NCBI GenBank assembly: GCA_963790475.1
Contig: CAWBOS010000010.1
Span: 1,280,001-1,344,000, forward strand
DNA from: an uncultured delta proteobacterium
GTDB lineage: Bacteria > Desulfobacterota > RBG-13-43-22
Direction: 5' to 3'
Length of the DNA stretch: 64,000 nucleotides
In this document: positions 43,316 through 64,000 of the stretch, piece by piece
Layout of the letters: each line of letters starts with the position of its first letter
How positions within the stretch are numbered: position 1 is the first letter of the stretch
Notes under the pieces: generated by a model
The model's input: only the letters and a program-made list of their open reading frames with translations
The model's database searches: none
What the model was told of the DNA's origin: nothing
Program-made: the position numbers and the translations under genes

Positions 43316-43344
43316 TTGACCCTCTCTTTTTCCTGTTTTATACT
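43316..43344 (+). promoter_or_regulatory. Sigma70 promoter candidate heading the STAND array
   Basis: TTGACC-N17-TATACT. Confidence 0.6.
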
Positions 43345-43398
43345 CCCGCAACCCAAAACGATTAATTGCTGTTAACCAACTTTTGAGGAGTTGGCGAA

Positions 43399-43539
43399 AT
43401 GCAGTGTCCTAAGTGCCTGTTCGATAATCCCGAGGGGGCCAAGTTTTGTAATGCCTATGGGGACCCTTCCTCCCTCCCTATCTCCCCGTCTTGTTCCTTG
43501 CTTCAAATAACCCCCAACTCACGGAGAAGGGTTGTTTGA
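43399..43539 (+). pseudogene. 5' stub of a zinc-ribbon STAND paralogue (MQCPKCLFDNPEGAKFCNAYG...)
   Basis: GAGGAG RBS; the first 21 aa match the zinc-ribbon starts at 44315/49026/52429/57091, then similarity is lost. Confidence 0.7.
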
Positions 43540-44236
43540 AAAAATGAAAATAAATCTCTTCGCCTCCATCATTCTCATCCTCATTTCCATTTTAATTCTA
43601 ATCATTCACCATATCACCCAGGCGGAATTTTTGCTTCACCTTGCCGCCATTCCTATCGAGGTCCTCGTGGCCGTTATCATCGTAGAGCAGTTTCTGGAAC
43701 ACAGAGAAAGTCAGGAAAAGCGCCGACAGATGATGTATATCAAGAGCTACATGTTCCGCTCCGAGATGCGTAATCTTTTTATTGCCGATTTCGCCGCCCT
43801 CAAGTCACCCCCGGTCACCTTTGAGAAGATCAGAAGGGCCTCCCTTCAGGAATTGAAGGAATTCAGGAAAAGCGCCAAGATCGTAGAGTATAAGTCTCCG
43901 GAGGCCATGGAGTCCGTAATACAGGAATATGTCAGGGCATTTCACGTCTGGCACAGTTTTTTGGAGCGAGCCATGAATTACGGTTTTGAGAACGTGTTCC
44001 AGGATATGATCTTTATCATCCACTTTATTCATACGGTTAAGAATTTTAAGGAAAAGAACCCGAATAAATTATTTATCGATGAGGCGGCCGGCAACGGGGT
44101 CCTTTTCGAGAGTTCGGTAAAGGTGTTGGGCGATGGTATTCGCTCTTTTCTCGATTACACCCTTGAGCTTAAGGAAAAGCAGCCGAAACTCTTTGACGAG
44201 GTGTTGTCGGACTATGAACGTCCATCAAGAGGATAA
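43532..44236 (+). CDS. Hypothetical protein with two N-terminal TM helices and a soluble helical domain
   Basis: Hydrophobic segments at about aa 8-27 and 33-52; GGAG RBS; start 43532 (TTG) or 43544. Confidence 0.75.
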   Translation: MFEKMKINLFASIILILISILILIIHHITQAEFLLHLAAIPIEVLVAVIIVEQFLEHRESQEKRRQMMYIKSYMFRSEMRNLFIADFAALKSPPVTFEKIRRASLQELKEFRKSAKIVEYKSPEAMESVIQEYVRAFHVWHSFLERAMNYGFENVFQDMIFIIHFIHTVKNFKEKNPNKLFIDEAAGNGVLFESSVKVLGDGIRSFLDYTLELKEKQPKLFDEVLSDYERPSRG

Positions 44237-44314
44237 AGCTGCTCAAGGTTTTCATATAAGACTTTGGTCTTGGCCTGAATTATTTTTACAAATCCGTAAA
44301 TATCAGGAGAAAAA

Positions 44315-47300
44315 ATGAGATGTCCGGCCTGCGGTCATGAGAATTTGGATGGTGCCAAATTTTGTAATGAATGCGGGGCAAAACTTGAGCTGGCCTGTCC
44401 CCGGTGCGGGAAGGTAAATCCCCCGGGAAGCAAATTCTGCTGTGAGTGTGGGCAACCCTTGTCTGCGCCTCAGGAATCACACCCGCCAAAAAGCCTTCCG
44501 GAGAAATGGCCCCAGCCCTACCCCTTTCCCTTGCCCAAAGAATTATCCGAGAAGATCCTGGCCCAGAAGGGCCGGATCGAAGGGGAGCGCCGGCAGGTCA
44601 CGGTCATGTTCTGCGACCTGGAGGGCTCCACCGCCCTGACCGAGAAGCTTGGGGACGAAAGGGCCTTTTCACTCATCGACGAAATCTTCGATATCTTAAC
44701 CCAGCAGGTCCACAGATATGAGGGGACGGTCCAGGAGTTCCGGGGAGACGGCATCATGGCCCTTTTCGGCGCCCCCATTGCTTTGGAAAATGCCGCCCAG
44801 CGGGCTATTCGCTCGGCCTTGGCCATCCACCAGGAGGTGACCAAGTTCGGCCACCAGATTCAGGAGGGAACCAGGGGGACGGGGATTCACATGCGGATCG
44901 GGATCCACACCGGCCCGGTCGTCCTGGGCACCATCGGCAGCGACCTGCGTCTGGAATTCCAAGTCATCGGCGATACGGTAAACCTCGCGGCCCGGATGGA
45001 AAGCCTGGCCGAGCCAGGAAGCACCTATGTGACGAATGATACCTTTAAGCTCACTGAAGGGCTCTTTCGCTTTGAAGGCCTGGGGGAAAAGCTGGTCAAG
45101 GGGAAAGAGACGCCGGTCCGGGTCTATCGGGTCATCGCTCCCAGCAGCCATAGCACGCGGTTCGATGTCAGCGCCGAGCAAGGCCTTACGCCATTCGTGG
45201 GCCGCCTGCGGGAAAGAGAGCTGTTACTGGATGCCTTTGAGCGGGCCCGTGATGGCCGAGGCCAAGCGGTCTCTATCGTTTCCGAGGCCGGGATGGGTAA
45301 ATCACGCCTGCTCTATGAGTTCCGGAAAGCCGTGCTCAACGAGGACATTACTTTTCTGGAAGGCAAATGCCTTTCCTTCAGCCGTGGCGTGGCCTATCAG
45401 CCCATTGCCGACATCCTCAAATCGAACTTCGATATCCGGGAGGATGACTGGGACCCGGCGATCAAAAATAAGGTCAAACAAGGCTTGCAGACCATCAAGA
45501 TGGGAGAAGGTCCTGCCCTGCCCTATCTTCTGGAGCTTCTCTCGGCCAAAGACAGCGGCATTGAAAAGATCCAACTCAGCCCCGAGGGGAAGAAGGATCG
45601 AACCATGGATACGCTCAAAAAAATTATACTGAAGGGCTCCGAAATGCGCCCACTGGTCATAGCCATCGAGGACCTCCATTGGATCGATAAAACTTCGGAA
45701 GACCTCCTGAAATATCTTTTGGGAAGCATCGCCGGGGCCAGGATACTCTTTATCCTCACCTACCGGCCCGAGTTTATTCCCACCTGGGGCCCCCGCTCTT
45801 ATCATAACCAACTTCTTCTTAACCGCCTCTCCAACCGGGAGAGTCTTCTCATGGCCCAGCACATCCTGGACACCAGGCAACTGGAAAGTGCTTTGGAAGA
45901 AGTGATCCTGGAAAAAACCGAAGGGGTCCCCTTCTTTGTCGAGGAGTTTATCAAATCCTTGAAGGACCTGGACATCATCGAGAAAAAAAATCAGACCTAC
46001 CGCATCACCAAGGAGCTTCAGACAGTCCGCATCCCTTCCACTATCCAGGACATCATCATGGCCAGGGTGGATGCCCTGCCCGAGGGGGCCAAGGAAGTGC
46101 TTCAGGTGGGCTCTCTCATCGAGCGTGAGTTCGCTTATAAGCTGATCAAGGCGGTTATGCACCTGCCCGAGGAGGAACTCCTCCGAAGGCTTTCAATTCT
46201 CAAAGATGCGGAACTGCTTTACGAGCGGGGCCTATTTCCTGATTCGACCTTCATCTTTAAACATGCCCTGACCCGGGAAGTGATCTACGGCACCCTCCTG
46301 GAGGGAAAGAAGAAAGAGATCCACGGAGAAATCGGTTGGGCAATCGAGGAATTATATAGTGATAATATAGATGAGTACTGCGGCCTATTAGCAGAGCATT
46401 ATAGGGCGAACGAAAATTATTTGAAAGCCTCGATTAATTACCAGACGGCTGCCAGAAAACCGGCCAGAGCCGTTTCATTTACCAATGCCGTTTCTTTGGC
46501 TGAGAAGGGGTTGATCTGTCTGGAGAAGCTGCCTCGGACAGACGAGGTAGGAAGGAAGATCGTCGATGCCAGGACAACGCTTGGACTTTATTTTATTCAG
46601 TTACAACACTTCGACACCGCCAAGAAAATCATCGACCCCGTGGTCGAACCGGCCTTAAAGCATGATTACCGGCGAAGACTTTCTCAAATTTATACGGTGC
46701 TTGGTATCCATAGTCATTTAATCGCGGAGGACTATCCCCAGGCTATTGAATATTTGGAAAAGGCCATAAAGATGGCCGAAGAGATGGATGATTTTGTTTC
46801 TTTGATATTTGCCCAACATTATTTAGGACATGTTTTCGCGGATAATTGCCTTTTCGACCAAGGCCTGTATTATATAGGAAAGGCCTTGAAGATCGTCGAA
46901 ACCTTTAACGTCCCCTGGAGTATAGCCATGCACAAGGCCTGTATCGCTTATACCATCTATTGTTCTCAGGGGAAAATCGGATTGGCCTATGAGACCGGCA
47001 GGGAGGCCTTATTATTGGCTGAAGAAAGCGGCGATATACTCTCAAAAGCCGAGGCCTATACCAACCATGGGGCCTGCTGTTTCTTTAAAGGATTCCTGGA
47101 GGAAGCGGAGGAGAATCTCTTAAAGGGGATTGATTTTAGTGCCAAAGCCCAATTATTTGGCCAAGGATTTGTGGCCCATTTATCTTTGGGAATGGTCCAT
47201 TCTCGCAATGGTAATTATGGAAAGGCCATAAACTATTTTGGGAAGGCCATCGAGTTTGAGAAATTCGGCACTCTCACCCCTTCCTATTTTAATTTGGCTC

Positions 47301-47680
47301 AGATAGCTCTTGTTTCAGCCAAGGTGATGAACCATGAGAAAGATATCGATTTAGAGCTTTTACCCGTCCATATGTCCCATAACAAAATTAAGAGATTTGA
47401 TAGCTTCTTTAGGAAACGTTTAAGCGAGATTTTTATAAACATTGATGGCGATCATTGGTCGGACGCTGAAAATTGGCTTAAGCAGGCCATTGAAATTGAC
47501 AAGAACAACGGGGTTATTTCTGAGTTGGGCCTGGATTATGTCCTTTACGCTGAATTATCCAGGCATAAAGGAGATCGTTCAAAGGCCAAAGAGCTTCTCG
47601 GAAAGGCCATAGAACTTTTTAAAGAATGCGAGGCCGACGGCTGGGAGAAGAAATATGAGAAGGAGATGGCCGAGATGTGA
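44315..47680 (+). CDS. Double zinc ribbon - class III nucleotide cyclase - AAA_16 STAND ATPase - TPR protein (copy 1, intact)
   Basis: Four CxxC; FCDLEGST, EFRGDG, RIGIHTG, GDTVNLAARME; FVGR, SEAGMGKS, IEDLHWID, EGVPFFVEE, FKHAL; TPR-like C-terminus. Confidence 0.92.
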   Translation: MRCPACGHENLDGAKFCNECGAKLELACPRCGKVNPPGSKFCCECGQPLSAPQESHPPKSLPEKWPQPYPFPLPKELSEKILAQKGRIEGERRQVTVMFCDLEGSTALTEKLGDERAFSLIDEIFDILTQQVHRYEGTVQEFRGDGIMALFGAPIALENAAQRAIRSALAIHQEVTKFGHQIQEGTRGTGIHMRIGIHTGPVVLGTIGSDLRLEFQVIGDTVNLAARMESLAEPGSTYVTNDTFKLTEGLFRFEGLGEKLVKGKETPVRVYRVIAPSSHSTRFDVSAEQGLTPFVGRLRERELLLDAFERARDGRGQAVSIVSEAGMGKSRLLYEFRKAVLNEDITFLEGKCLSFSRGVAYQPIADILKSNFDIREDDWDPAIKNKVKQGLQTIKMGEGPALPYLLELLSAKDSGIEKIQLSPEGKKDRTMDTLKKIILKGSEMRPLVIAIEDLHWIDKTSEDLLKYLLGSIAGARILFILTYRPEFIPTWGPRSYHNQLLLNRLSNRESLLMAQHILDTRQLESALEEVILEKTEGVPFFVEEFIKSLKDLDIIEKKNQTYRITKELQTVRIPSTIQDIIMARVDALPEGAKEVLQVGSLIEREFAYKLIKAVMHLPEEELLRRLSILKDAELLYERGLFPDSTFIFKHALTREVIYGTLLEGKKKEIHGEIGWAIEELYSDNIDEYCGLLAEHYRANENYLKASINYQTAARKPARAVSFTNAVSLAEKGLICLEKLPRTDEVGRKIVDARTTLGLYFIQLQHFDTAKKIIDPVVEPALKHDYRRRLSQIYTVLGIHSHLIAEDYPQAIEYLEKAIKMAEEMDDFVSLIFAQHYLGHVFADNCLFDQGLYYIGKALKIVETFNVPWSIAMHKACIAYTIYCSQGKIGLAYETGREALLLAEESGDILSKAEAYTNHGACCFFKGFLEEAEENLLKGIDFSAKAQLFGQGFVAHLSLGMVHSRNGNYGKAINYFGKAIEFEKFGTLTPSYFNLAQIALVSAKVMNHEKDIDLELLPVHMSHNKIKRFDSFFRKRLSEIFINIDGDHWSDAENWLKQAIEIDKNNGVISELGLDYVLYAELSRHKGDRSKAKELLGKAIELFKECEADGWEKKYEKEMAEM

Positions 47681-47838: not shown

Positions 47839-49008
47839 ATGATCAAAAGAATTTTAGAAAAAAAGCTGGTGGCTCTCTCCGGGCAGTTCCCTGTCGTCAC
47901 CCTGACGGGACCACGACAATCGGGAAAGACAACCCTGGTACAGCAGGCATTTCCTGATTGGGAGTATGTCTCCCTGGAGGAGTTGGATAACCGTGAGTTT
48001 GCGGAGCAAGATCCGCGCGGGTTCCTTTCCACTTACTCTCAAAAAGTGTTGATTGATGAGGCCCAAAGGGTACCATCCCTTTTTTCCTATCTTCAAGGAG
48101 TGGTCGACCGGCTCAACCGACCGGGCCAGTACATCTTAACCGGCTCCCAGAATTTTTTGCTCCATGAAAGAATTTCCCAATCCTTAGCCGGCCGCACCGC
48201 CGTCCTGAAACTGCTTCCCCTGAGCCTGGAAGAGCTTCCTAAGGGGAGGACACCCGGCAAGAATTACTACGCCTTCCTTTTCCGGGGGTTTTATCCCCGG
48301 CTGTATGCCCAAACCGTTTCTCCCACCGATTGGTATAGGAGCTATGTTCAGACCTACCTGGAAAGGGATCTCCGCCTGATCAAGAACATCCCCGACTTGG
48401 GGCTGTTCCAAAAATTTGTGCGCCTTTGCGCCGGACGGGTCGGACAAGTGCTGAACCTGAGTTCCCTGGCCCAGGATACCGGCATCAGCCCCAATACCGC
48501 CCGGTCCTGGATCTCTTTATTGGAAAGCAGTTACCTGGTGTTTCTACTTCAGCCCCACTTCCGCAACTTTAACAAGCGCCTCATTAAAATGCCGAAACTC
48601 TATTTTTACGATCCCGGATTAGCCTGCTATCTCCTGGGAATCGAAACCCCGGAGCAGGTCAAAACGCATTTTCTGAAAGGAGCCCTTTTTGAGTCTCTGA
48701 TCATTTCGGAATTGATCAAGTATCGGGTTCATCGCGGCTTGGAAGCCAACTGTTATTATTGGAGGGACAAGGTCGGCCATGAAGTTGACTGCCTCCTTGA
48801 TTTCGGGGAACGGCTGGTCCCCTTGGAAATCAAATCCGGGGAAACCATCACCTCCGGCTTTTTTGAAGGGCTGAATTACTGGAATCGTCTGGCCAAGGCA
48901 GATCCCCGTCATGCCTTTCTGATTTATGCCGGTTCCAAGAAAGAAGAAAGAAGCCAGGGACGGGTTTTGAGCTGGGGTAAGATTCAGGATGTTTTTAATG
49001 TGGTTTAG
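47839..49008 (+). CDS. AAA_14 ATPase with DUF4143 (PD-(D/E)XK-like) C-terminus
   Basis: GPRQSGKT, IDEAQ, LTGSQ, PKLYFYDPGL, GALFES, YYWRD..GHEVD..PLEIKSG. Confidence 0.92.
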   Translation: MIKRILEKKLVALSGQFPVVTLTGPRQSGKTTLVQQAFPDWEYVSLEELDNREFAEQDPRGFLSTYSQKVLIDEAQRVPSLFSYLQGVVDRLNRPGQYILTGSQNFLLHERISQSLAGRTAVLKLLPLSLEELPKGRTPGKNYYAFLFRGFYPRLYAQTVSPTDWYRSYVQTYLERDLRLIKNIPDLGLFQKFVRLCAGRVGQVLNLSSLAQDTGISPNTARSWISLLESSYLVFLLQPHFRNFNKRLIKMPKLYFYDPGLACYLLGIETPEQVKTHFLKGALFESLIISELIKYRVHRGLEANCYYWRDKVGHEVDCLLDFGERLVPLEIKSGETITSGFFEGLNYWNRLAKADPRHAFLIYAGSKKEERSQGRVLSWGKIQDVFNVV

Positions 49009-49025: not shown

Positions 49026-52000
49026 ATGAAATGTCTGAAATGCCATACGGAGAATCCTGAGACCAAAAAGTTTTGCACGGAGTGTGGAGCAAAGCTTTCA
49101 CTGATTTGCCCTCATTGTAAGGCAGAGGTCCTGCCGACAGAAAAATTTTGTGGTGAGTGCGGGCACCCTTTATCCGTTCCTCCCAAGACAACCCCCAAAC
49201 CACTCCCCTCTATTGATGAAAAGATTGCCAAAATCCAGCATTATCTTCCCAAGGATCTGGCTGACAAAATCTTACTGCAGCGGGAGCGGATCGAGGGGGA
49301 GCGCAAGCAAGTGACGGTGCTGTTCACCGACATGGTGGGCTCCACCTCCATGTCGGAGAAACTCGATCCCGAAGAGTCCTTCGGCCTGATGGAACAGGTT
49401 TATGAGATCCTCATCCGAACGGTCAATGAGTACGGGGGAACGGTGAACGAGCTGACCGGCGACGGGGTCATGGCCCTCTTCGGCGCCCCCATCGCCCTGG
49501 AGGACGCGCCCCAGCGGGCTATCCGGGCCAGCCTGAGCATCCACCGGGAGCTGGTCCAGTTCAACGAAAAGATGCGCCGAGAGAAAGCCGGTCTGCCCTT
49601 GCTGCGGATGCGGGCCGGGATCAACACCGGACCGGTGGTGATGGGCACCCTGGGTAATGACCTGCGGGTCGATTTCAAGGTCGCCGGCGATACGGTCAAT
49701 CTGGCCTCTCGTATGGAAGGCCTGGCCGAGCCCGGCACCACGTATGTTACCGCTGAGACCTTCAAACTCACCGAGGGGTTCTTTCGCTTTGAAGGATTAG
49801 GGAAGAAAGAAATCAAAGGCAAGGCCGAGCCCATCGAGGTCTTTCGGGTCATTGCCCCCAGCAACCGCAGGACCCGCTTTGATGTGAACGCCGAACAGGG
49901 ACTGACCCCATTCATAGGTCGTCAGCGCGAACTCGAACTTTTGCTCGATGTTTACACCCGGGCCAAAAGCGGCCGGGGCCAGGCCATTTCCATCGTGGCC
50001 GACGCCGGCATGGGCAAGAGCCGGCTGCTCTACGAGTTTCGCAAAGCCCTGGCCAATGAGGAGGTGAACTTTCTGGAAGGCAAATGCCTCTCTTACAGCC
50101 GGGGAGTGGCCTATCACCCGGTGATCGACCTGCTGAAAGGGCAGTTTGACCTCCGGGAAAACGACGGCGACTTTGAGGTGCGGGACAAGGTCAAACGAAA
50201 CCTGAAACTCCTGCAAATTGACGAAATCACCACCCTGCCCTATTTTCTTGAGCTTCTTTCGGTCAAAGACAGCGGCCTGGACCGAATTTCTTTAAGCCCG
50301 GAAGGCAAGAGAGACCAGACCCTTCAGGCCCTGACCCGCTTCGTTCTCAAGGGGGCCGAGATCCAGCCTCTGATCCTGGCCGTGGAAGACCTTCACTGGA
50401 TCGACCGGAGCTCCGAAGAGGTCTTGAAAGACCTCCTGGAACACATTGCCGGGGCCAGGGTATTGCTGATCTTCACCTACCGGACCGAGTACGTCCACAC
50501 CTGGGGGTCCCGCTCCTTTCACAGCCAGGTCACCTTAAACCGGCTCTCCAACCGGGAAGCATTGGCCATGGTCTCTCATCTTTTAGCCACGGAAAGCGTG
50601 GCCGAGAACCTTCAGGACCTCATCTTGGAGAAGACCGAAGGGGTTCCCTTCTTTATCGAAGAGTTTTTGAAGTCCCTCAAGGACCTCCAGGTCATCCGCC
50701 GGCAAGACACGGTTTACGCCCTGACCAAAGACCCCAAAGACGTTACCATCCCTTCCACCATCCAGGACGTGATTATGGCCAGGGTCGATGCCCTGCCCGA
50801 AGGGGCTAAAGAGCTCTTGCAGACAGGGTCGGTCATCGAGCGCGAGTTTTCCCATGAACTTATTCAAAAGGTAACCAAACTCTCTGAATCGGACCTCCTG
50901 ACCCATCTCTCGGCCCTTAAGGATGCCGAGCTCCTCTACGAGCGGGGGGTGTACCCGAACTCCACTTACATCTTTAAACATGCCCTGACCCGAGAGGTGG
51001 TTTATGACTCGATCCTGACCAGAAGGCGCAAGGAAATTCATGCCACCGTGGCCGAGGCCATGGAGCAAATTTATCAACCCAACCTTGATGAACACCTGGG
51101 CACCCTTTGCCATCACTTTATGACCGGGGATAACTACGAGAAAGGCGAGACCTACGCCAGGCTGGCCGTTCAAAAGGCGCAGAAGGCCGGCTCATTGCCG
51201 GATGCCATCAATCAATCCAAGAAAAGAATCGCCTGTCTTGAGAAATTGCCTCTGGCCGAAGAGGTTCAAAGAAAAATAATAGACGCCCGGACAATTATGG
51301 CCCTCCGCCTGATTGAACTCAATCATTTTATTGAAGCCAAAGAAGCTATTGACCCGATTATCGACCTTGTCAAAAAGCTGAATTATAAAAAGCGTCTTGG
51401 CCAGGTGATAACCATTATTGGATCATATCAATCTAGTGTGGAAGAAAATTTCCCGGCAGCCTTTCAATCTTTCGAAAAGGCCTTAACTCTTTCGCAGGAA
51501 GCAAATGACATCGTAACTTCAGTTTTTTTAAATTATTGGCATGGAGTAACTTTGGCCAACAACTGCGAATTTGAAAAGGCCACCGGCCTCATGCAAAAGG
51601 CCGTTGACATAAATGTGGCAGCCAAAAATTTATGGGGGATCGCATCCACTCAAGCCACTTTTGCCTATTTATGTTTTTTCTTGTCCGGAAGGATAGATTT
51701 GGGATTCCGGACCTCGGCCGAAGCCGTTCAAATAGCTGAAGAGAGCGGAGATGGTTATTCCAAAGGTGTAGCTTATGCTTGCCACGGCGTTTCCTGCTTT
51801 GGGCGGGGATTATTCGAAGAAGCAGAAAAGTATTTTTTAAAAGGCATCGCCTTTTGTGAAAGGGTCAATCAACCGACTTTTAACTTGCTCGAACATTGTT
51901 ATTTGGGTGAGATCAATTTTGAAAAAGGAAATTTTTTAAAATCAGAAGAATGGTATAGGAAGCATACCAGATTGTGAAAGAGGGCCGCATATTTCCTTCT

Positions 52001-52396
52001 TTCTTGGGTTGGGGAAAATCAAGATTGCTGAAGACAAAGAGTATGATCGATCCAAAGAATATCGACCTGGAATCTCTTTATGTCTATTCTAAAAATAATA
52101 AAATCAAAGCCTACCAAGGTTTGATTTCCATTGATATCGGGGCCATTCTAATGAATCTGGATGGATGTCTGCCCGAAGCCGAAATTTGGATTCAAAAGGC
52201 CATTGAGGAAGACCAAAGAAACGGCACGCGGTTTTTTTTAGGAAGAGACTACGCCCTTTACGCCGAATGGTTCAAACGAAAGGGCGATCGATCCCAGACC
52301 CGGGAAAACCTGGGGAGAGCCATAGAAATTTTAAAAGAGTGCGGCGCCGATGGCTGGGTGGAAAAATATGAGAAGGAGCTAACCGCACTGCAATAG
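49026..52396 (+). pseudogene. Zinc ribbon - cyclase - STAND ATPase - TPR (copy 2), frameshift near 51957 in the distal TPR region
   Basis: FTDMVGST, ELTGDG, GDTVNLASRME, ADAGMGKS, VEDLHWID; 'tgg tat ag gaa gca tac' lacks one base; ORF 51974-52396 supplies the conserved ..CGADGWVEKYEKEL tail. Confidence 0.88.
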
Positions 52397-52428
52397 ATGA
52401 ACTGAATTCTGACTACCGGAGGTAGAAA

Positions 52429-55400
52429 ATGGAATGTCCTAAATGCCAGGCTGAGAATCCGGAAACTAAAAAGTTTTGCAGCCAGTGCGGGACAAAACTT
52501 TTAAAGGTCTGCCCTCAGTGTGGCGCTGAAATTCTTCCAAACGATAGATTTTGCGGCGAGTGCGGACAGGCCTTGTCTGCACACCGGGAATCACACCCGC
52601 CAAAAAGCTTTCCGGAGAAATGGCCCCAGCCCTACCCCTTTCCCTTGCCCAAAGAATTATCCGAGAAGATCCTGGCCCAGAAGGGCCGGATCGAAGGGGA
52701 GCGCCGGCAGGTCACGGTCATGTTCTGCGACCTGGAGGGCTCCACCGCCCTGACCGAGAAGCTTGGGGACGAAAGGGCCTTTTCACTCATCGATGAAATC
52801 TTCGATATCTTAACCCAGCAGGTCCATAAGTTTGAGGGGACGGTCCAGGAGTTCCGTGGAGACGGTATTATGGCCCTTTTCGGCGCCCCCATTGCCCTGG
52901 GAAATGCCGCCCAGCGGGCTATTCGCTCGGCCCTGGCCATCCACCAGGAAGTGACCAAATTCAGCCACCAGGTTCAAGAAGGAGTCCGGGGAGCGGGGAT
53001 TCGCATGCGGATCGGCATTCATACGGGCCCGGTCGTCCTGGGCACCATCGGCAGCGACCTGCGTCTTGAATTCCAGGTCATCGGCGATACGGTCAATCTC
53101 GCGGCCCGGATGGAAAGCCTGGCCGAGCCGGGAAGCACCTATGTGACCAGCGATACCTTTAAGCTCACCGAGGGGTTCTTTCGCTTTGAAGGCCTGGGGG
53201 AAAAGGTGGTCAAAGGGAAAGGGACGCCGATCCGTGTTTATCGGGTGATCGCTCCCAGCAGCCAAAGTACGCGGTTCGATGTCAGCGCCGAGCAGGGCCT
53301 CACCCCATTCGTGGGCCGCCAGCGGGAGCTGGAACTCCTTCTCGACGGCTATGAACGAGCCAAGTCCGGCAAAGGCCAGGCCTTTTCCCTCATATCGGAG
53401 GCCGGGGTGGGGAAATCCAGGCTGCTTTATGAATTCCGGAAGGCAGTGGGCAACGAAGAGATCACCTTTCTGGAGGGCCGCTGTCTTTCTTACGGCAGGG
53501 ATGTCCCCTACCATCCCTTCATCAGCGTCCTGAAAGCCAACTTTGAGATTAAGGAAGGGGAAATCGATTCAGAAATCAGGCGGAAAGTCGAGCGAGGGCT
53601 GGACCTGATCGGATTGGATCGAGGCTCCAGCCTGCCCTATTTCCTGGAGCTATTATCCGTCAAGGACAGCGGCATCGAACAAATCTCCCTCAGCCCCGAG
53701 GGGAAAAAGGACCGGCTTCAGGAGGCCTTCCGGCGGATCATCCTCAAGGGTTCCCAGGTACGTCCCCTGGTTATTGCCATTGAGGACTTGCAACGGATGG
53801 ACAAAAGCTCCGAGGAGGCCTTGAAGTATATATCGGAAAGCATCCCGGGATCGAGGATTCTTTCCATCTTCACCTACCGTCCGGAATTCATTCCTTCCTG
53901 GGGAGGCAAGTCCTTCCACAGCCAGTTGACCTTGCAGCGTCTTTCCAACCGGGAGACCCTGGATATGGCCGCCCATCTCCTGGGCACTAAAGAAATAGAA
54001 AGGTCCCTGGAGGAGCTGCTTTTAGAGAAGACCGAAGGGATTCCCTTTTTCCTGGAGGAATTTATCCATTCCTTGAAGGACCTGAAAATCATCGAGCGAA
54101 GAGGCCTGGCCTTTGGCTTATCAAAAAGTATCCTGGAAAAAATGGCCGTCCCCACCACCATCCAGGAAGTGATCCTGGCCAGGGTGGACCCCTTGCCCGC
54201 CAGGGCCAAAGAAGTGCTTCAAGCCGGGTCGGTTATCGAGCGGGAGTTCGACTTCCGGCTGATCAAACAAGCCACCGGATTCCCGGAACCGGAGTTGCTT
54301 TCCAACCTTTCCCTTTTAAAGGACGCCGAGCTTTTATATGAACGGGGCATCTATCCCCAGTCGAGCTACATCTTCAAACATGCCCTGCCCCGCGAGGTGG
54401 TTTATGATTCCATCTTGTCCGACCGTAAGAAGAGACTCCACGAAGAAATCGGCCGGGCCTTGGAAACCCTATACCGGGACCGCTTAGGGGAATATTACGG
54501 GGTCCTTTCCGAGCACTTCATAAAAAGCGGCCGTTATGAAAAAGGGGGAGAATATGCCAAATGGGCGGCCAAAAAAGCCGAGAAAACCGTTTCCCTAAAC
54601 GATGCCATTTCCTACATGAAATATCCTGCCTGGAAAAACTGCCCCCATCCGAAGAGAATGAAAAAGAAGAGATCGACGCCCGAACCATCATGGGGACTTA
54701 CATTTTACAAATGAATTATCCGGTCCGGGCCAAAGAGGCCATTGACCCGATCATTGATCGGGCCTTGAAGCTTAACTATAAACGCCGGCTCCCGCTGATA
54801 TATGGCATATTAGGGCAACATTCGCTTGAGGTTGAAGAAGACTTCCCCGCGACCTTCCATCATCTTGAACAGGCCTTAAAGATTTCCGAAGAGACCCATG
54901 ATATTCTTTCCCTGTTTGTCACCAATTATAGCCTGGGTTTCTCGCTGCTGTGCGATTGTGCTTTTGAAAAGGCCTCTCATCACTTTGAAAAAGGCCTGGA
55001 AATAAACCAAGCGGCCAATAATCTTTGGGGCATATCAGCTATGAAATCTTTTTTGACCCTTATCCAGCTTTATCGAGGCCAAATCGATCTTGGCCACCAG
55101 CTCAGTGCGGAGGCCCTTCATTTGGCCGAAGATAGCGGCGATATCTACTCCAAAGGGATTGCCTATACCGCCCATGGTGTTTCTTGTTATTGCAAAGGAT
55201 TTCTTGCTGAGGCGGAAAACCACTTATTAAAAGGAAATGATTTTTGCGAAAGGATCCATTTTTTCGCCTGGAACCTCGTGGCCCAATATCATTTAGGTGA
55301 GCTGTATCACTTTCTCGGAAAATATGAAAAGGCCGTCGGCTGTTTTGAAAAAGGGGTTTCTTGTTTGGAAGAGGCTCGTTTCGGTCCCTCAAGAAAAAAT

Positions 55401-55790
55401 ATAAATAGAATGGGAATTGCCAGGGCCAGGGTTTTGATCGATCGAGGAGATATTAATTTAGGACTCCTGTATGGGTATATCCGGGAGAATAAGCTGAAAG
55501 AGCTCGACGGTCGAATGCGAAGATTCATGGCTGAGATTTTATTGCATCTCGATGATGATCACATGGACGAGGCCGAGTCCTGGATCAATCAGGCTATAGA
55601 AGCCGATCAGCGGAATCAAATGAGGTGGTGTTTGGCCTGGGATTATCTTTCCCATTCCGACCTCTTGAAGAAAAAAGGCGACCGGTTTAAGGCCACGGAG
55701 ATCCTGGGCCGGGCCATAGAAACTTTTAAAAACTGCGGCGCTGATGGGTGGGTGCAAGAGACTGAACAGAAGTTGGCCCTTATTTCATGA
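52429..55790 (+). pseudogene. Zinc ribbon - cyclase - STAND ATPase - TPR (copy 3), frameshift near 54620
   Basis: ORF 52429-54714 plus ORF 54561-55790; alignment to copy 2 (AINQSKKRIACLEKL vs AISYM-aa-ISCLEKL) implies a 7-nt deletion. Confidence 0.88.
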
Positions 55791-56445: not shown

Positions 56446-56453
56446 GAAAATAT

Positions 56454-57090: not shown

Positions 57091-60000
57091 ATGAATTGTC
57101 CGATGTGCGGGCTTGATAATCGAGAAGGGGTAAAGTTCTGCGAGGAATGCGGGGCCAAGATGGAGCTGACGTGTCCCGGTTGCGGGTCAATAATCCCATC
57201 AGGCAAAAAATTCTGTGGCGGGTGCGGCCGGTCCCTGATCTCGACTCAACCCCCAACTCCGGTTGCATCCGCACCACCTTCCTCTCCCCCACCCGCTTCC
57301 TTCGCCAATGGCCGCTACGCGGTCAAGAAGTTTCTGGGAGAAGGGGGCAAGAAGAAGGTTTATCTGGTCCATGACAGTTTGCTGGACCGGGATGTGGCCT
57401 TTGCCCTGATTAAGACTGAGAAGCTGGATGCCGCCAGCCGGCAGCGCATCAGCCGGGAGGCCCAGGCCATGGGAAGATTGGGCGACCATCCCAACATCGT
57501 CGGAATCTATGATATGGGGGAAGAAAAAGGCCAGCCCTATGTAGTCCTGCCCCTCCTGCCGGGGGGAGATGTAGAAGGTTTGATGGAGAAGGCCCCGGAG
57601 CGGCGGCTGCCCATCGAAAGATCCATCGATATTGCCAAGGCCGTCTGCCGGGGCCTGGAATATGCCCACAGCAAAGGGGTGATTCACCGGGACATCAAGC
57701 CGGGTAATGTCTGGCTGAACGCCGATGGTATCGCCCAGATCGGCGACTTCGGACTGGCCCTGGCCCTCGACCTTTCCCGCCTTACGAATGAAGGGATGAT
57801 GGTCGGTACCTATTATTATATGCCTCCGGAACAGGCCATGGGCGGTGAGGTTTCTCCCCAGGCCGACTTGTATTCCTTAGGGGCTATGCTCTACGAGATG
57901 GTTGCCGGCCGGCCGCCCTTCACCGGTGATGACACAGTGGCCATTATCGGCCAGCATATCAATACCCCGCCCGTTTCTCCTTCCTGGCACCGTCCCGAAC
58001 TGTCCCCTGCTTTGTCTGCTCTGATCATGCGGCTTTTGGAAAAAGATCCCCACCATCGCCCTGCCTCAGCCGGAGAAGTCCTCAAGGCCCTGGAGGTCAT
58101 TGAGACCGGCAATGCGGAAAAAGTCACCTCCAGGGAAGAAGCAGTCCTGACTGAGAACCCCCTATATAGGCGGGTATTCGTCGGCCGGGAGCCGGAACTC
58201 CGGCAACTGCAATCGGCCTTTGATCTGGCCGCCTCCGGCCAGGGCTCTCTGATGATGGTGGTGGGGGAACCGGGTATCGGCAAGACATCACTCAGCGAAC
58301 AATTGGCCACCTATGCCACCCTTCGAGGCGGCCAGGCCTTAGTGGGACACTGCTACGAAGAAGGCTCCCTGTCTCTGCCTTATCTCGCTTTTGTGGAGGC
58401 CTTGCGCTCTTATGCCGGAACTCGAGACATCAGTGAGCTTCAAAAAGAACTGGGTCCGTGGGCGGCCGATGTGGCCCGAATTGTCTCCGAGGTCCGGGAG
58501 AGGCTGAGCATTCCACCCCGGCTCAAGGGTGACCCCGAGGAAGAAAGGTACCGGCTGATGCAGGCCGTCTCCGACTTCCTGGGAAATGTCGCAGCAAACA
58601 AGCCCCTGGTGATCGTGCTGGAAGACCTGCACTGCGCCGACCGCGGCACATTAGAAATGCTGGGCCATGTGGCCCGCAATCTGGGTAATAAAAGACTTCT
58701 CCTGGTGGGCACCTACCGGGATATCGAGGTGGACCGGACTCATCCCCTCTCCTCTTCCCTGGCCGACTTAAGACGTCTGCCCACTTTCAGCCGCGTACTG
58801 CTTAGAGGACTCAATGCCGATGAGGTACGACGGATGCTGGCCGGAATTGCCGGGCAGGAGGTGCCCTGGGGTCTGGCCCAGGTTGTGCACCGCCAGACCG
58901 AGGGCAATCCCCTTTTTGTCCAGGAAGTGATTCGTTATTTAGCCGAAGAAGGGGTCTTCGTCCGGGACAAAGGACGCTGGCAGCCGGCCAAAGATACGCC
59001 GGTGGAAATGCGCATACCCGACGGGTTGAGGGATGTAATCGGCAAGCGTCTTTCATCCCTGAGCGAGACCTGCAACCGGCTGCTCTCCACCGCCGCAGTC
59101 ATCGGCCGGGACTTTCGTTTGGAGGTCCTCCAGAGGGTAGCCGGACTGTCCGATGAGGACCTGTTCAAGGCCCTGGAGGAGGCCAGAAAAGCAGCCGTGA
59201 TCGAAGAACGGACCGGCACCGGGGCTGTGGTCAACTACCGATTTGCCCACGCCTTCTTCCGCCAGACCCTCTATGAAGAGATCATCGCCCCCCGGCGCAT
59301 CCGCCTCCACCAGCAGGTGGCCAGGGCACTGGAGGAGGTCTACAAAAACCGGCTGGCAGAGCATGCTGCGGAGTTAGCCGAGCACTTCTCCTATTCATCC
59401 GATTCAGAGGACCTTAAAAAAGCAATCAGTTATTCTGAAATGGCGGCCGAGAGGGCGACCTCAGTCTTTGACTACGGGGAAGCGGTCAGACTTCTGGAGA
59501 AAGCGCTTCAGGTGCAGGAAGTTTTAGATCCCGAGGACAAAATCAGAATGTGTGATCTTTTACTCTCCCTGGGGGATACCTTGACCATGGCCGGTAATCC
59601 CAGGAGGGCACTCGATCACGAGTTTGAAAAGGCCTTTCATTTAGCGGAAGATGCAGGCAGCAGGCATCGTGCCGCCAAGGCAGCGGTGCTGTCCATGACT
59701 GCTTTGAGGTTTTATGGCTGGGGTTTCGCTGAGAGTTCGCCCGAAATGGTGAAATGGGTTGAACGCGCCGATCGATATGCTAAGCCGGGTTCGGCGGAAC
59801 GGGTAAAAGCCGATATCGGCTTGGGAACGGTTAAAATGTACAGTCAGTATAACGAGCCCTTTGAATCCTGGGTATCATACTTTGACCGGGCACTCGAATT
59901 ATCCCGTGAATTAAAAGATCCCGGGACTTTCTGGGAAACTGCAGGGGATTATCTGTTTTGGGTTTGGTCTCCTGATCATGCCGAAAAGCAATTAGAACTG

Positions 60001-60912
60001 GCTGAAGAAATATTGCTGAAATCACATGCAGGAGTAAATATCAGAGGACTTGTCTATGCTATGGGATATGCCGCCAATGTTTTTTTGGCCCGGGCCCATT
60101 ATGAAAAAATGAAAGAGATAATAAATATTATACAAAAAATTACAGACCAATCCAATCAAATACACAATAAAATAGGTTTTCTGGTTTGGGAAATTATTTT
60201 GAAACTATTGGATGGCGAGTTATCGCCAGCCGTTCAAAAATGCCATGAGCTGGCCGAATTGGGGGAAAAGGAGTCTTTAGTAGAGTTTGTTGATGTCGCC
60301 ATGATTTCGTTTCTGCCCAGGCCTCTCCAATACTTAGGGATAAGCAGTGATGTTTTAAATAAGTCCAGGTCTCGCATCCAGGATCCCTCTATACATGGAA
60401 CAATCTTCTCATTCCTGCATAATAATCAACTTGATAAAGCCCTGGAGCTTATTGACTGGTTGATTGAATTAAGAATGAAAAGAGGAGCCTCTCAAGATGA
60501 AACGTTGAGTTATCCCGATGTGTTTCTACTTGAAGCCTGTATACGATTAAACCATACCAAGGCCATCCAATTTTTATATGACCGCCTCAAGACCTGCCCG
60601 CATGTCACCAGCGCTGTCTGGTCAACGACATGCACGGCCCTTCCCCTGGGAAGGGCCGCGGAATTACTGGGCCATCCGGATGAAGCACTATCTCATTACA
60701 GAGACGCCTTGAAAGTGGCTATTTCACTCAGATATCGGCCGGAAATTGCCATTGCCCGCTATGAGATTGCCCGGCTGTTACTGGAAAAATATCCTGAAGA
60801 GAAAAAAACAGCCTTGGAGCATCTGGATTTTGCTATCGGCGAATTCCGGGAGATGAAAATGCAGCCATTCCTGGAAAGAGCACTGAGGCACAAGGAGATC
60901 CTTAAGGCGTAG
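57091..60912 (+). CDS. Double zinc ribbon - Ser/Thr kinase - AAA_16 STAND ATPase - TPR-like protein
   Basis: Four CxxC; GEGGKKKVY, HPNIV, HRDIKPGN, DFGLA, GTYYYMPPEQ, DLYSLG; FVGR, GEPGIGKT, LEDLH, EGNPLFV, FAHAF; GAGGAGG RBS. Confidence 0.92.
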   Translation: MNCPMCGLDNREGVKFCEECGAKMELTCPGCGSIIPSGKKFCGGCGRSLISTQPPTPVASAPPSSPPPASFANGRYAVKKFLGEGGKKKVYLVHDSLLDRDVAFALIKTEKLDAASRQRISREAQAMGRLGDHPNIVGIYDMGEEKGQPYVVLPLLPGGDVEGLMEKAPERRLPIERSIDIAKAVCRGLEYAHSKGVIHRDIKPGNVWLNADGIAQIGDFGLALALDLSRLTNEGMMVGTYYYMPPEQAMGGEVSPQADLYSLGAMLYEMVAGRPPFTGDDTVAIIGQHINTPPVSPSWHRPELSPALSALIMRLLEKDPHHRPASAGEVLKALEVIETGNAEKVTSREEAVLTENPLYRRVFVGREPELRQLQSAFDLAASGQGSLMMVVGEPGIGKTSLSEQLATYATLRGGQALVGHCYEEGSLSLPYLAFVEALRSYAGTRDISELQKELGPWAADVARIVSEVRERLSIPPRLKGDPEEERYRLMQAVSDFLGNVAANKPLVIVLEDLHCADRGTLEMLGHVARNLGNKRLLLVGTYRDIEVDRTHPLSSSLADLRRLPTFSRVLLRGLNADEVRRMLAGIAGQEVPWGLAQVVHRQTEGNPLFVQEVIRYLAEEGVFVRDKGRWQPAKDTPVEMRIPDGLRDVIGKRLSSLSETCNRLLSTAAVIGRDFRLEVLQRVAGLSDEDLFKALEEARKAAVIEERTGTGAVVNYRFAHAFFRQTLYEEIIAPRRIRLHQQVARALEEVYKNRLAEHAAELAEHFSYSSDSEDLKKAISYSEMAAERATSVFDYGEAVRLLEKALQVQEVLDPEDKIRMCDLLLSLGDTLTMAGNPRRALDHEFEKAFHLAEDAGSRHRAAKAAVLSMTALRFYGWGFAESSPEMVKWVERADRYAKPGSAERVKADIGLGTVKMYSQYNEPFESWVSYFDRALELSRELKDPGTFWETAGDYLFWVWSPDHAEKQLELAEEILLKSHAGVNIRGLVYAMGYAANVFLARAHYEKMKEIINIIQKITDQSNQIHNKIGFLVWEIILKLLDGELSPAVQKCHELAELGEKESLVEFVDVAMISFLPRPLQYLGISSDVLNKSRSRIQDPSIHGTIFSFLHNNQLDKALELIDWLIELRMKRGASQDETLSYPDVFLLEACIRLNHTKAIQFLYDRLKTCPHVTSAVWSTTCTALPLGRAAELLGHPDEALSHYRDALKVAISLRYRPEIAIARYEIARLLLEKYPEEKKTALEHLDFAIGEFREMKMQPFLERALRHKEILKA

Positions 60913-61164: not shown

Positions 61165-61165
61165 G

Positions 61166-62351: not shown

Positions 62352-63005
62352 ATGAAACTTCAAAAGGTTGGTGGTTATGCATCAATAGTGTACGGACTCC
62401 TGGCATTATTCTTCCTGGTGATCATTATTTTTGTTCTCCCCGGCTTGGGGCTCGTTGAACCGAGCGATTGGAGTGACCCGGTTAAGGGCATGGCCGCTGG
62501 TGACAAGTCTCCTGCTACATTTTTCTTAATGAATTTGGATTTTGTCTTGTTAGGCATTACCATCGTACTTATCGCTCTGGCCCTTCAGGAGCGGATGGAA
62601 GAAGAGGCGCCGAATCTCATGCGGCTCGTCGTTATCGGCGCCTCCATCAGCGCCGCCTTGTGGTTCAGTGGCGGTTTGATCGCGATCACCGGTTTTCCAC
62701 CGATCATCAGCGCCAAAGATATCTCAGCCTACCGGGCGCTTAATAATGTGTATTTTGGTCTGGGTATTGCCGGAGACCATGCCTCCGGCTGGTCTTTACT
62801 ATTGAGCGGCTGGGTTGCCATTAAGACCGGTAAGCTCCCACGCCTGCTCGGTTTCCTGCTCATTTTTGTAGGGATCCTCTGGATACTGGAATTTTTTTCC
62901 TGTGGACATTACCTCTATGGCCTGCTGGTGCTGGTAGGCCTATTGATCCATGTTATAGCCAACCTCTGGCTGGGCACGGTATTCTTGCGGAACAGGAGTT
63001 ATTAA
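62352..63005 (+). CDS. Multi-pass membrane protein (DUF4386-like)
   Basis: About 6 TM segments; '..KLPRLLGFLLIFVG' motif; GGGAGG RBS. Confidence 0.7.
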   Translation: MKLQKVGGYASIVYGLLALFFLVIIIFVLPGLGLVEPSDWSDPVKGMAAGDKSPATFFLMNLDFVLLGITIVLIALALQERMEEEAPNLMRLVVIGASISAALWFSGGLIAITGFPPIISAKDISAYRALNNVYFGLGIAGDHASGWSLLLSGWVAIKTGKLPRLLGFLLIFVGILWILEFFSCGHYLYGLLVLVGLLIHVIANLWLGTVFLRNRSY

Positions 63006-63028
63006 AGGAGAACAGATAACAAATCGGA

Positions 63029-63205
63029 TTCACCACAGAGTCGCAAAGAGCGCAGAGGTAGAATATTTTTTCTTTCCGCTGAGAAGGCGGAAAGGGAAAA
63101 GAGCTCTATGCATTTGCCTGCCCCTCACAGGCAAATGCAAAATCTTACTTGGCGTACTCGGCGTCTCTAACGAGTCCTGTTTTTATCAGGGCGAGTGGGC
63201 GGTGG
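63029..63205. repeat. Structured twin-hairpin repeat, copy B
   Basis: TTCACCAC start; hairpin loops TGAGAAG (63080-63086) and CCCCTCA (63121-63127); GCGGTGG end. Confidence 0.7.
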
Positions 63206-63243
63206 CCATAATTGCTTAACGAATGATCGGAGAAAACTCGGAT

Positions 63244-64000
63244 ATGCCTGCTGATGAAAAAAATATTCCGGAGGGAACCATCACTCTTTTTATCATTGAT
63301 TTGGTGGGTTCCACCGGTCTCAACCAATCCTTAGGGGATGAGGTTTACGCCACTGTAGAGCGCGGAATTAAAAAAATAGCTTTTGAGCTGATATCCACGA
63401 ACAACGGCATCGTCTTTAAGGATACCGGTGATGGTCTGATGGCGGCCTTTCGGTCGGCCCGCAAGGCCGTGGGGTGTGCCAGGGAGTTCCAGCGGTCGGT
63501 CGCCCAGCGCAATCGAACCCAGGGCGGGGCACCTATTAGATTGAGGATCGGTCTTCACACCGGAGAGGTTCTCGCCGAGAATGGCGACTTCCGGGGCGAG
63601 ACCGTGATCATCACCAAAAGAATCGAGGAGGTGACCCCTCCCGGAGCGATATATGCTTCCGAGACGGTCCATGGTGTTTTGGGCACCACACGCACAGAGT
63701 TAGAGGATCGGGGCGAATTCGAGTTGAAAGGAATCACTGCGCCCTGGCGTCTTTACGAGGTACCATGGGTCGAGATGGAAGCCGGCAGGGTCCTTCCTCA
63801 CAATGAGCCGACGCCCTTTGTGGGGCGATCGATGGAATTCTCACACCTGCTCGAATTGGTCGAGCGAACCAAGAAGTCATCAGGTAGCATGGTTTTTATC
63901 GGAGGCGAGGCCGGGATCGGAAAGACCAGGCTGACCGAGGAGACTGCCAGGGAAGCAAGGCGATTAGATCTGCTGGTTCTGACCGGTCATTGTTTGGAGA
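63244..64000 (+). CDS. Partial class III cyclase - AAA_16 STAND ATPase (no zinc ribbon; runs off the window)
   Basis: Manual translation, open to the end: MPADEKNIPEGTITLFIIDLVGST..FKDTGDGLMAAF..RIGLHTGE..GETVIITKRIE..ELKGI..PFVGR..GEAGIGKT; absent from the ORF track. Confidence 0.9.
   Translation, partial: MPADEKNIPEGTITLFIIDLVGSTGLNQSLGDEVYATVERGIKKIAFELISTNNGIVFKDTGDGLMAAFRSARKAVGCAREFQRSVAQRNRTQGGAPIRLRIGLHTGEVLAENGDFRGETVIITKRIEEVTPPGAIYASETVHGVLGTTRTELEDRGEFELKGITAPWRLYEVPWVEMEAGRVLPHNEPTPFVGRSMEFSHLLELVERTKKSSGSMVFIGGEAGIGKTRLTEETAREARRLDLLVLTGHCLE

Follow-up and report, generated by a model that had tools for sequence, protein, structure and literature searches.

The stretch of DNA analysed here, hereafter the window, covers 64,000 nucleotides of the genome of an uncultured deltaproteobacterium (G000:C10:1280001-1344000; host assembly of 6.34 Mb in 20 contigs) and carries an array of five co-oriented genes, starting at positions 44315, 49026, 52429, 57091 and 63223, in which Pfam recognizes a common plan of effector enzyme, AAA_16 core of the STAND class (signal transduction ATPases that have numerous domains) and tetratricopeptide repeat (TPR) tail. 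The members of this family are mosaics of separately shared modules, and a hypervariable TPR sensor is carried on a conserved chassis of enzyme and nucleotide-binding oligomerization domain (NOD), so that a single genome shows the family evolving as exchangeable modules, as eukaryotic nucleotide-binding leucine-rich repeat (NLR) repertoires behave. Our leading interpretation, which we hold with about even confidence, is that the locus belongs to a repertoire of STAND signalling switches, ligand-gated and of the MalT/PknK kind, which has expanded in this lineage and undergoes recombination; a repertoire of immune receptors ranks second, and duplication with decay third. The cyclase-ATPase-TPR architecture itself is already known from mycobacteria, as the accessible text of one study describes (10.1101/2024.03.06.583649), and what is new here is the mosaicism of the copies, the contrast between chassis and sensor in the kinase type, the step in GC content at third codon positions (GC3) at the NOD/TPR border and the varied, non-canonical base-specifying pairs of the cyclases.

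Architecture of the tandem array

Plain coordinates are window positions throughout, and those prefixed L001 are counted past the window end. The effector is a class III nucleotide cyclase in four of the genes (A1, A2, A3 and B) and a Hanks-type Ser/Thr kinase in one (K), and an N-terminal double zinc ribbon (DZR) is present in four of the five, B being without; in all of this Pfam agrees with a preliminary description of the locus that had been made from the sequence without database searches. The presence of five paralogues on one strand within 20 kb is far above chance expectation. A1 (44315..47680, plus strand, as are the other four) is intact and encodes 1121 aa with Pfam scores of 3.4e-11 for DZR, 7e-28 for Guanylate_cyc, 1.6e-24 for AAA_16 and 1e-14 for TPR_12, its assignment resting also on catalytic and Walker residues and on a NOD model. 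K (57091..60912), likewise intact at 1273 aa, combines zinc ribbon, kinase, NOD and TPR (DZR 2.8e-10, Pkinase 1.8e-47, AAA_16 2.9e-29, TPR_12 6.8e-10). B (63223..64000, on to L001:2636), which is intact at 1137 aa and combines cyclase, NOD and TPR, starts at 63223 rather than at 63244 as first given and has 2636 bases beyond the window; its in-window part matches the cyclase (7.4e-12) and AAA_16 (8.9e-12) models. A2 (49026..52396) and A3 (52429..55790), identified by Pfam and by homology to A1, carry the full series of DZR, cyclase, NOD and TPR but are each split by one frameshift, into open reading frames (ORFs) 49026-51977 and 51974-52396 for A2 and 52429-54714 and 54561-55790 for A3; the main ORFs hold the DZR together with cyclase and AAA_16 (7.7e-25 and 2.3e-23 in A2, 8.9e-28 and 2.5e-22 in A3). 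The TPR tails previously ascribed to four complete genes are present, but those of A2 and A3 continue in another frame.

The five genes seen in the window are only part of the array, which runs on to a sixth copy (A6, L001:5830-9198) 5.8 kb past the window end, with a beta-lactamase-fold gene and an acyl-CoA dehydrogenase gene between B and A6. When the NOD, cyclase, kinase and zinc-ribbon parts were searched against every ORF of the genome, 11 family loci were found: the six of this cluster, a tandem pair (A7 and A8) on contig C13, A9 on C15, A10, which is split in two at C10:1709514-1712878 on the minus strand, and a further copy broken in three at C10:226972-230037. Cyclase-domain matches in the genome total 18. 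Orphan zinc-ribbon stubs lie at three places, at 43399 in the window, at C13:251639-251920 and near C10:2003620. The first is a 46-aa ORF (43399..43539, plus strand) that begins, as had been noted, with the first zinc ribbon of a family member, its first 18 residues resembling the N-termini of the paralogues, and then passes into unrelated sequence, but its Pfam matches (Zn_Ribbon_1 7.7e-4, DZR 1.1e-3) are each below cut-off.

The ATPase core matches AAA_16 at 80-103 bits against a Pfam cut-off of 32.6 bits. Because a PDB sequence search with the NOD alone gave no match for A1 and four for K, none of them significant (E at least 0.13), the STAND classification rests on a fold search: an AlphaFold2 model of the NOD from 68 sequences (mean predicted local distance difference test score of 89.5) has among its top Foldseek matches the TPR-STAND protein PH0952 (6mfv), Apaf-1, CED-4, MalT (8bob, rank 7) and Avs3 (8dgc, rank 12), at a probability of 1.00 and template modelling scores of 0.31-0.49, with plant NLRs and ORC/Cdc6 coming after them. 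On the strength of this model we regard the core as a true STAND module with predicted nucleotide-binding (NBD), helical and winged-helix domains (NBD-HD-WHD). A GxGK[ST] Walker A motif, an acidic Walker B motif of the EDLHW type and a following sensor-1-like Arg are kept in all ten aligned copies, with A3 deviating in Walker B just past the acidic pair. The kinship with NLR and Avs-type STAND proteins that the preliminary description proposed is borne out by the fold matches to Apaf-1, CED-4 and Avs3, but the PADLOC STAND models (Avs, bNACHT and others) gave no NOD match at E 0.01. The tails, at the other end from the N-terminal cyclase or kinase, match TPR_12, TPR_2 and TPR_MalT, the last of these (PF17874) at 20-42 bits in the window copies, below its 45-bit cut-off, and at 58.8 bits, above it, in L001:5830-9198; a LuxR-type helix-turn-helix (HTH; GerE, PF00196) was found in no copy at E 0.01.

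The closest solved cyclases are CyaB (3r5g, 100 bits) and the guanylate cyclase Cya2 (2w01, 93 bits), both of the housekeeping type, and key positions were mapped via alignments to these two, with an assignment of catalytic and base-specifying positions that we take to be correct. The two metal Asp residues and the transition-state Asn/Arg are kept in eight of the nine cyclase copies (A1, A2, A3, A6, A7, A8, A9 and A10); the ninth, B, keeps the metal Asp pair, has Ile for the transition-state Asn, lacks the strand carrying the second specificity residue and, alone among the copies, has Lys at the first. Speculatively, a homodimer of the B cyclase might have no activity, and B might function solely as the partner that complements another copy in a heterodimer. 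The base-specifying pairs of the catalytically complete copies are E/Q (A1, A3, A9), E/K (A2), E/T (A6, A7) and Q/T (A8, A10), none of the eight having the adenylate-cyclase pair Lys/Asp or Lys/Thr, and among 120 family members 98 have E/K, two have K/T and 12 match no pattern. Because these pairs are non-canonical, the sequences do not support the source label of 'adenylate cyclase'; the copies may make different nucleotides, and the first specificity position, where it is Glu, resembles that of guanylate cyclases such as Cya2. This variation makes the cyclase product a directly testable question. K matches Pkinase at 162 bits, and the beta-3 Lys, the HRD catalytic loop and DFG are all present in its translation; judged by such residues, the enzymes look active.

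Mosaic copies and the hypervariable sensor

The effector modules had been described as interchangeable and the TPR sensors as divergent, and comparison of the copies shows that this modular reading is right and stronger than first noted. At the protein level A1 and A3 are 94% identical in the linker and 93% in the cyclase, versus 52% in the zinc ribbon, 64% in the NBD and 35-42% in the TPR region; A1 and A7 are 85% identical in the NBD and 75% in the rest of the NOD, versus 64% in the cyclase and 25-30% in the TPR region, and A1 and A9 are 75% identical in the cyclase versus 31% in the NOD. Along the DNA of A1 and A3, identity is 87-99% over nt ~150-830 (linker and cyclase), then ~65% and then ~50%, and such sharp steps coincide with domain borders. 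The synonymous divergence (dS) of the same pair is 0.23 over linker and cyclase versus 1.96 in the NOD and 2.35 in the zinc ribbon; that of A1 and A9 is 0.97 in the cyclase with a saturated NOD, and that of A6 and A8 is 0.74 in the TPR region versus 1.60 in the cyclase, again with a saturated NOD, while the nonsynonymous divergence (dN) of A1 and A7 is 0.09 in the NOD versus 0.33 in the cyclase and 0.74 in the TPR region. Since dS is so uneven among domains, the domains differ in history and not only in constraint; cyclase, NOD and TPR are each the recently shared module in some pair, and the copies are mosaics. Furthermore, the NOD nearest to that of K is the NOD of the cyclase copy B (252 bits versus 112-150 for the other cyclase copies), and this sequence relationship indicates that kinase and cyclase have been swapped on one NOD lineage. 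Across all domains dN/dS is 0.05-0.26, with chassis values of 0.05-0.11 that amount to strong purifying selection.

To describe the distribution of this variation, K was set against 67 full-length homologues (1255-1285 aa) from many metagenomes, which were picked by length from 119 proteins, the non-self part of the 120 best matches out of at least 6294. Median identity is 79% in the kinase, 81% in the NBD and 80% in the rest of the NOD, versus 35% and 32% in the two halves of the TPR region and 42% in the zinc ribbon, at near-constant protein length. Column entropy is 0.3-0.7 bits over kinase and NOD, rises to 1.3-1.9 bits over residues 840-1160, which approximately delimit a hypervariable sensor core, and returns to 0.5-0.7 bits over the last 70 residues. 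The same step is found in the DNA of K versus three copies of a congener (G010), and among those three, with identity going up again at the 3' end, and in the closest pair the TPR region has a dS of 1.48 (versus 0.53-0.68) and a dN/dS of 0.26 (versus 0.05). Among 3476 word-sharing candidates the sensor of K (residues 830-1180) matches two other proteins at 68-70% identity, both on a kinase chassis, a count that the word filter makes a lower bound and that compares with at least 6294 for the K NOD. The cyclase type shows the trend more weakly (68% in the cyclase, 67% in the NBD and 48% in the TPR region over 116 homologues), and no specific coupling was seen between zinc ribbon and TPR region, whose variation correlates with a Spearman coefficient of 0.43 versus 0.38 with the chassis.

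Base composition follows the same border. Nine of ten copies, all but B, have a GC3 of 0.59-0.78 in the chassis versus 0.40-0.52 in the TPR region, and in eight of the ten it falls by 0.12 to 0.27 at the NOD/TPR border, the genome median being 0.59 over 1511 long ORFs; this contrast would fit either a chassis shaped by biased gene conversion or a sensor undergoing relaxed, AT-biased drift. In the scheme that we favour, diversity would come from recombination at domain borders, the enzyme-NOD chassis would be homogenized among copies, and the TPR cassettes, bracketed by conserved sequence, would stay old and very diverse and so provide a sensor repertoire for many ligands.

Cyclase- or kinase-STAND-TPR proteins number thousands in public data: the cyclase architecture is found in at least 7592 clusters, nearly all of ~1122 aa, and the kinase-type search gave at least 6294. 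The cyclase-type homologues bear source names such as 'class 3 adenylate cyclase/TPR' and 'AAA family ATPase', and a few carry Desulfobacterales or Deltaproteobacteria labels. At E 1e-30 there is a match in 21 of 30 relatives and in 10 of 13 congeners, with 0 to 16 matching pieces in each congener and the three without a match being 98-100% complete; the best cross-species identity is 54%, no closer than that of within-genome paralogues, and many matches contain stops. The homologues are hence not the stable, syntenic, single-copy genes that the preliminary description had set against its own proposal. A contig search of related genomes found nine loci, five of them useful and one (L009) heavily fragmented, a number too small to support statistics on neighbourhoods, and G010 has at least four kinase-type copies in 45 kb. 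No full-length homologue occurs in 50,697 phage records, where matches are to the kinase domain only (86 records); 864 plasmid records have a match, 14 of which cover at least 80% of the query, and the plasmid records listed are of 0.4-2.5 Mb, mainly from Cupriavidus, Burkholderia and rhizobia. One rhizobial replicon holds up to 17 matching places of cyclase-ATPase-TPR genes, and such expansions are common in soil bacteria. The kinase-type homologues P0145, P0205, P0232 and P0233, labelled Dehalococcoidia or Chloroflexi, have 76-83% NOD identity to K, as do homologues labelled Deltaproteobacteria or Thermodesulfobacteriota, an identity across phyla that suggests horizontal spread of the chassis or errors in binning.

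Possible signalling and immune roles of the array

By analogy with the STAND paradigm, the TPR region would keep the ADP-bound NOD closed until a ligand on the TPR frees it, whereupon ADP would be exchanged for ATP and the NODs would oligomerize. Oligomerization would join the N-terminal enzymes, the cyclases forming their obligate dimer with interfacial active sites and making cyclic nucleotide, and the kinase domains of the kinase type trans-activating each other. The outputs would then feed the cell's own cyclic nucleotide monophosphate (cNMP) and phospho-Thr networks rather than a suicide effector. Ten cNMP-binding proteins are encoded in the genome, none of them in the window array: a CRP-type regulator, an FHA-cNMP-sigma54 activator, a cyclic-nucleotide-gated channel, a BrkB-like membrane protein, two rhodanese fusions and four in which no second domain was detected; the regulator, the channel and the activator are the receivers that we have in mind. 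The activator, a 1068-aa protein with FHA, cNMP-binding and sigma54-activator parts (G000:C10:1869825-1874798, gene 1869825-1873031), is followed directly by the genome's second-best Ser/Thr kinase match and could be a candidate node that reads both array outputs, phospho-Thr and cNMP. If the sensors read metabolites or peptides, the family would give large-genome bacteria a general route to new second-messenger inputs.

According to the accessible text of one account, MalT and PknK belong to a single STAND subfamily, whose sensors are repeats and whose multimerization is driven by an inducer (PMC4381067). The array proteins share with these two and with PH0952 (6mfv, the best fold match) an AAA_16-type NOD followed by a sensor that appears TPR/SUPR-like, and with PknK, as described in the same text, the order of kinase, NOD and repeats (PMC4381067); inducer-driven opening and multimerization would, by analogy, be expected here too. 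MalT differs in its C-terminal DNA-binding effector, its sensing of maltotriose and its status as a conserved single-copy gene, whereas the array family has an N-terminal enzymatic effector after a double zinc ribbon and is multi-copy and mosaic with a hypervariable sensor. The mycobacterial proteins Rv0386, Rv1358 and Rv2488c ('mclx') likewise have a MalT-like ATPase preceded by a class III cyclase, Rv0386 having TPR as well, and the title of one study reportedly raises the pseudogene question for this family. They differ from the array copies, which have an N-terminal double zinc ribbon and no HTH, in their C-terminal LuxR/GerE HTH, and their Gln/Asn pair, which belongs to Rv0386 and is non-canonical like the specificity pairs of the array, is a different one. 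The accessible text of one study attributes this pair, with dual adenylate and guanylate cyclase activity, to Rv2488c, and presents cyclase-ATPase-(TPR)-LuxR proteins as known in M. tuberculosis, with the roles of the ATPase and TPR parts unstudied (10.1101/2024.03.06.583649). The best NCBIfam match is TIGR03903, a TOMM kinase/cyclase fusion, at E 1e-82 to 1e-110 over cyclase-ATPase-TPR or ATPase-TPR, but the array proteins reach 278-370 bits, less than its 705.75-bit cut-off, and unlike the model family, which has kinase and cyclase in one chain, they have one effector per chain and no TOMM genes nearby. A literature search, which did not extend to preprint supplementary tables, found no experimental study of the zinc-ribbon-cyclase/kinase-AAA_16-TPR family or its arrays.

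Several points weigh against the signalling repertoire. Its mechanism is drawn by analogy with the STAND paradigm; the non-canonical base-specifying pairs suggest that the cyclase product may be something other than cAMP; the GC3 contrast could in part stem from amino-acid composition or from relaxed selection, and not from biased gene conversion; the housekeeping context comes from no more than two genomes; and sensor diversity, copy-number flux and the presence, in two genomes, of toxin-antitoxin and PDC-S01 genes between copies are what one would expect of immune receptors. It is indeed possible, with a lower probability than we give to physiological signalling, that the copies are anti-phage or anti-mobile-element receptors, in which the TPR cassette would recognize a foreign protein, NOD oligomerization would switch the cyclase or kinase on, and cNMP or phosphorylation would arrest the infected cell via effectors encoded elsewhere, giving an NLR-like repertoire with arms-race diversity. 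Sensor-NOD-effector logic and fold are the same as in Avs and NLR proteins, and the tandem multi-copy organization with 0-16 matches in 13 congeners and at best 54% cross-species identity, the rare, hypervariable sensors on a conserved chassis, the shuffling of modules and the broken copies at 4 of the 11 loci with three stubs would all suit such a role, as would the HicAB pair, the DUF2283/DUF4258 pair and the PDC-S01 candidate within the array, with similar genes in a relative's kinase-type array. The broken copies, however, may be assembly errors, and the chassis is under strong purifying selection. In the accessible text of one preprint, most defence STAND sensors are TPR-like, and 198 of 589 STAND clades are defence-associated, interspersed with non-defence clades (10.64898/2026.01.04.697583); the variable TPR-like sensor of the array resembles those described there for Avs. 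A second preprint, seen likewise in part, predicts immune roles for a clade in which cNMP cyclases are joined to STAND modules, but its STAND partners are NACHT and AP-ATPase and not of the AAA_16/MalT type (10.64898/2026.08.12.744502). The array effectors are signalling enzymes, in contrast to the nucleases, proteases or TIR domains of Avs and bNACHT proteins, and the copies lack the defence-island context of the latter.

Matches to known defence genes argue in the same direction. In the array proteins PADLOC recognizes just two domains, the cyclase through PycC, at no more than 74 bits, and the kinase through PD-T4-6 and MAD6. The PycC hidden Markov model scores 1e-18 to 1e-21 for A1-A3 and 1.4e-8 for B, the generic Pfam cyclase model and CyaB/Cya2 score higher, and the kinase domain of K scores equally well against PknB; the PycC, PD-T4-6, MAD6, pVip, QatD and LeoA matches, considered as defence genes, were judged to be generic domain similarity. 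The likeness to Pycsar raised in the preliminary description comes down to this similarity of class III-type cyclase domains: Pycsar and Pucsar combine a small cyclase with an adjacent cNMP-binding TIR or transmembrane effector, whereas no cNMP-binding (PF00027) gene was found in or beside the window array and no cNMP-binding TIR, transmembrane or other killer beside any copy. A 234-aa membrane ORF at 43532-44236, considered as a PycTM-like effector, found no support, the ESM Atlas giving unnamed clusters only. Only A9, the C15 copy, has a cNMP-binding gene nearby, a rhodanese fusion (L003:8753-9676; G000:C15:30753-31676) whose cNMP-binding part matches PycTIR, and a MauE-like membrane protein and two radical SAM enzymes also lie around A9.

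Of the 56 ORFs that neighbour seven loci in two genomes, none is part of an established defence system, the single-gene candidate families PDC-S01 and PDC-S09 are matched by two, and six others match via generic domains only (cNMP-binding, radical SAM in two ORFs, TatD, GTPase and TPR); the other neighbours include hydrolases, beta-oxidation enzymes, EF-G, amino-acid transporters, ribonucleotide reductase and HisG. The immune role put forward in the preliminary description is not confirmed by these searches and stays a proposal. The lack of full-length homologues in phage records, and the plasmid matches found mainly on records of 0.4-2.5 Mb, likewise speak against it. Housekeeping neighbours and physiological cNMP receivers thus favour a physiological signalling role, and copy-number flux, sensor hypervariability and toxin-antitoxin-type insertions favour a role in conflict. 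We are rather doubtful of a recombination-driven receptor repertoire that reports foreign phage or mobile-element proteins through varied cyclic nucleotides or phosphorylation, in which the chassis would be kept uniform by gene conversion, the fixed-length TPR cassette would be swapped and diversified, every genome would hold a shifting set of NLR-like receptors, and the output would be signalling with no fused killer domain. If the sensors do read foreign proteins, bacterial immunity would have in this family a large and so far unrecognized branch with cNMPs or phosphorylation as its signal.

A third reading, in which an ordinary signalling gene of a large genome was duplicated in tandem and decayed with no repertoire logic, its diversity having no selected function, and in which gene conversion between adjacent repeats, perhaps increased by a defective mutS, left mosaicism behind as a by-product, could draw on the four interrupted loci and three stubs, on mutS lying in three frames in this assembly and on the commonness of cyclase-ATPase-TPR expansions in soil bacteria, but is improbable, since the intact copies (the B cyclase aside) keep all catalytic and nucleotide-binding residues with a dN/dS of 0.05-0.26 in all domains, the pattern of conserved chassis and variable sensor extends beyond this genome to the 67 homologues at constant length, and the exchange borders are domain borders, with the same pattern in a second genome.

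Interrupted copies and neighbouring genes

By homology to A1, A2 changes frame between 51955 and 51977, its last 140 residues being encoded at 51974-52396, and the TPR tail of A3 is the other-frame ORF 54561-55790, with the shift near 54610-54625; a long homopolymer is found at neither site. Public contigs over 51700-54900 comprise two low-depth sets whose nearest piece ends at 54611, so that neither junction is spanned. In the same assembly rpoB and secA are whole, while mutS (G000:C15:24321-26911, minus strand) is distributed over three frames (model positions 2-124, 126-468 and 468-839), and an AMP-binding, acyl-CoA ligase-like gene at 23964-25935 of the window, part of an ABC cluster for branched-chain amino acids, breaks at 25018-25049 into two ORFs, one with Pfam positions 3-273 and the other with 280-384. 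Loss of MutS raises homeologous recombination and frameshifts. The split of mutS is either a real mutator genotype, which could raise both among the paralogues, or a set of assembly errors. Because mutS and the AMP-binding gene are also split and the public contigs miss the junctions, the frameshifts of A2 and A3 may be real or assembly errors, and we call both copies interrupted in this assembly only.

Among the other genes of the array, the preliminary description had already placed a DUF4143 ATPase, which is confirmed at 47839..49008 on the plus strand as an AAA_14/DUF4143 protein (Pfam DUF4143 1.9e-47) and a PADLOC candidate of the PDC-S01 family (5.5e-102). Such a DUF4143 gene precedes a STAND copy in two genomes: the one at 47839-49008 ends 18 nt upstream of the cyclase-type A2, and the one at L017:60-863 ends 29 nt upstream of a kinase-type copy. 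Considered as a linked pair with the STAND gene this arrangement was set aside, since one of the 11 DUF4143 genes here is so placed, possibly by chance. The kinase-type array of a relative also holds an antitoxin, HepT, a PDC-S09-like MNT gene and a DUF4143 gene directly upstream of a copy. As for the two toxin-antitoxin pairs described before, HicB antitoxin (55850-56194, minus strand; HicB 1.3e-16) and HicA toxin (56191-56463, minus strand; HicA_toxin 2e-10) are both above their Pfam cut-offs and their genes are adjacent with a 4-nt overlap, as in type II HicAB systems; the second is a putative pair, in which DUF2283 (60946-61194, minus strand; 2.7e-10) stands beside a weak DUF4258 match (61166-61429, minus strand; 4e-3, below cut-off).

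Esterase-type hydrolases (beta-lactamase fold, alpha/beta hydrolases, carboxylesterase) flank four of five independent family loci (41294-42514; L001:2831-4033; L002:2244-3155; L005:5703-6545; L004:1399-2949 and 4177-5082), a PF00144 or PF00561 gene lying within 5 kb of three of the five and other esterases at the fourth. The hydrolase families were picked after seeing the data, with a rough nominal p of ~0.02, and neither of the two pairs compared, at 26% identity and at 31% over a local match of 95 residues, arose by co-duplication; the association may be a hint of metabolic coupling or chance, and serves as a lead only. On the left flank of the array an ORF with a Mut7-C RNase domain (39821-40303, 1e-22), just upstream of an enoyl-CoA hydratase gene, may be a solitary toxin-like gene. 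Further to the left, a GAF-PAS-LuxR regulator (21126-22742) adjoins a CBS-domain protein and an Fe-alcohol dehydrogenase, in a region dense in ordinary signalling genes.

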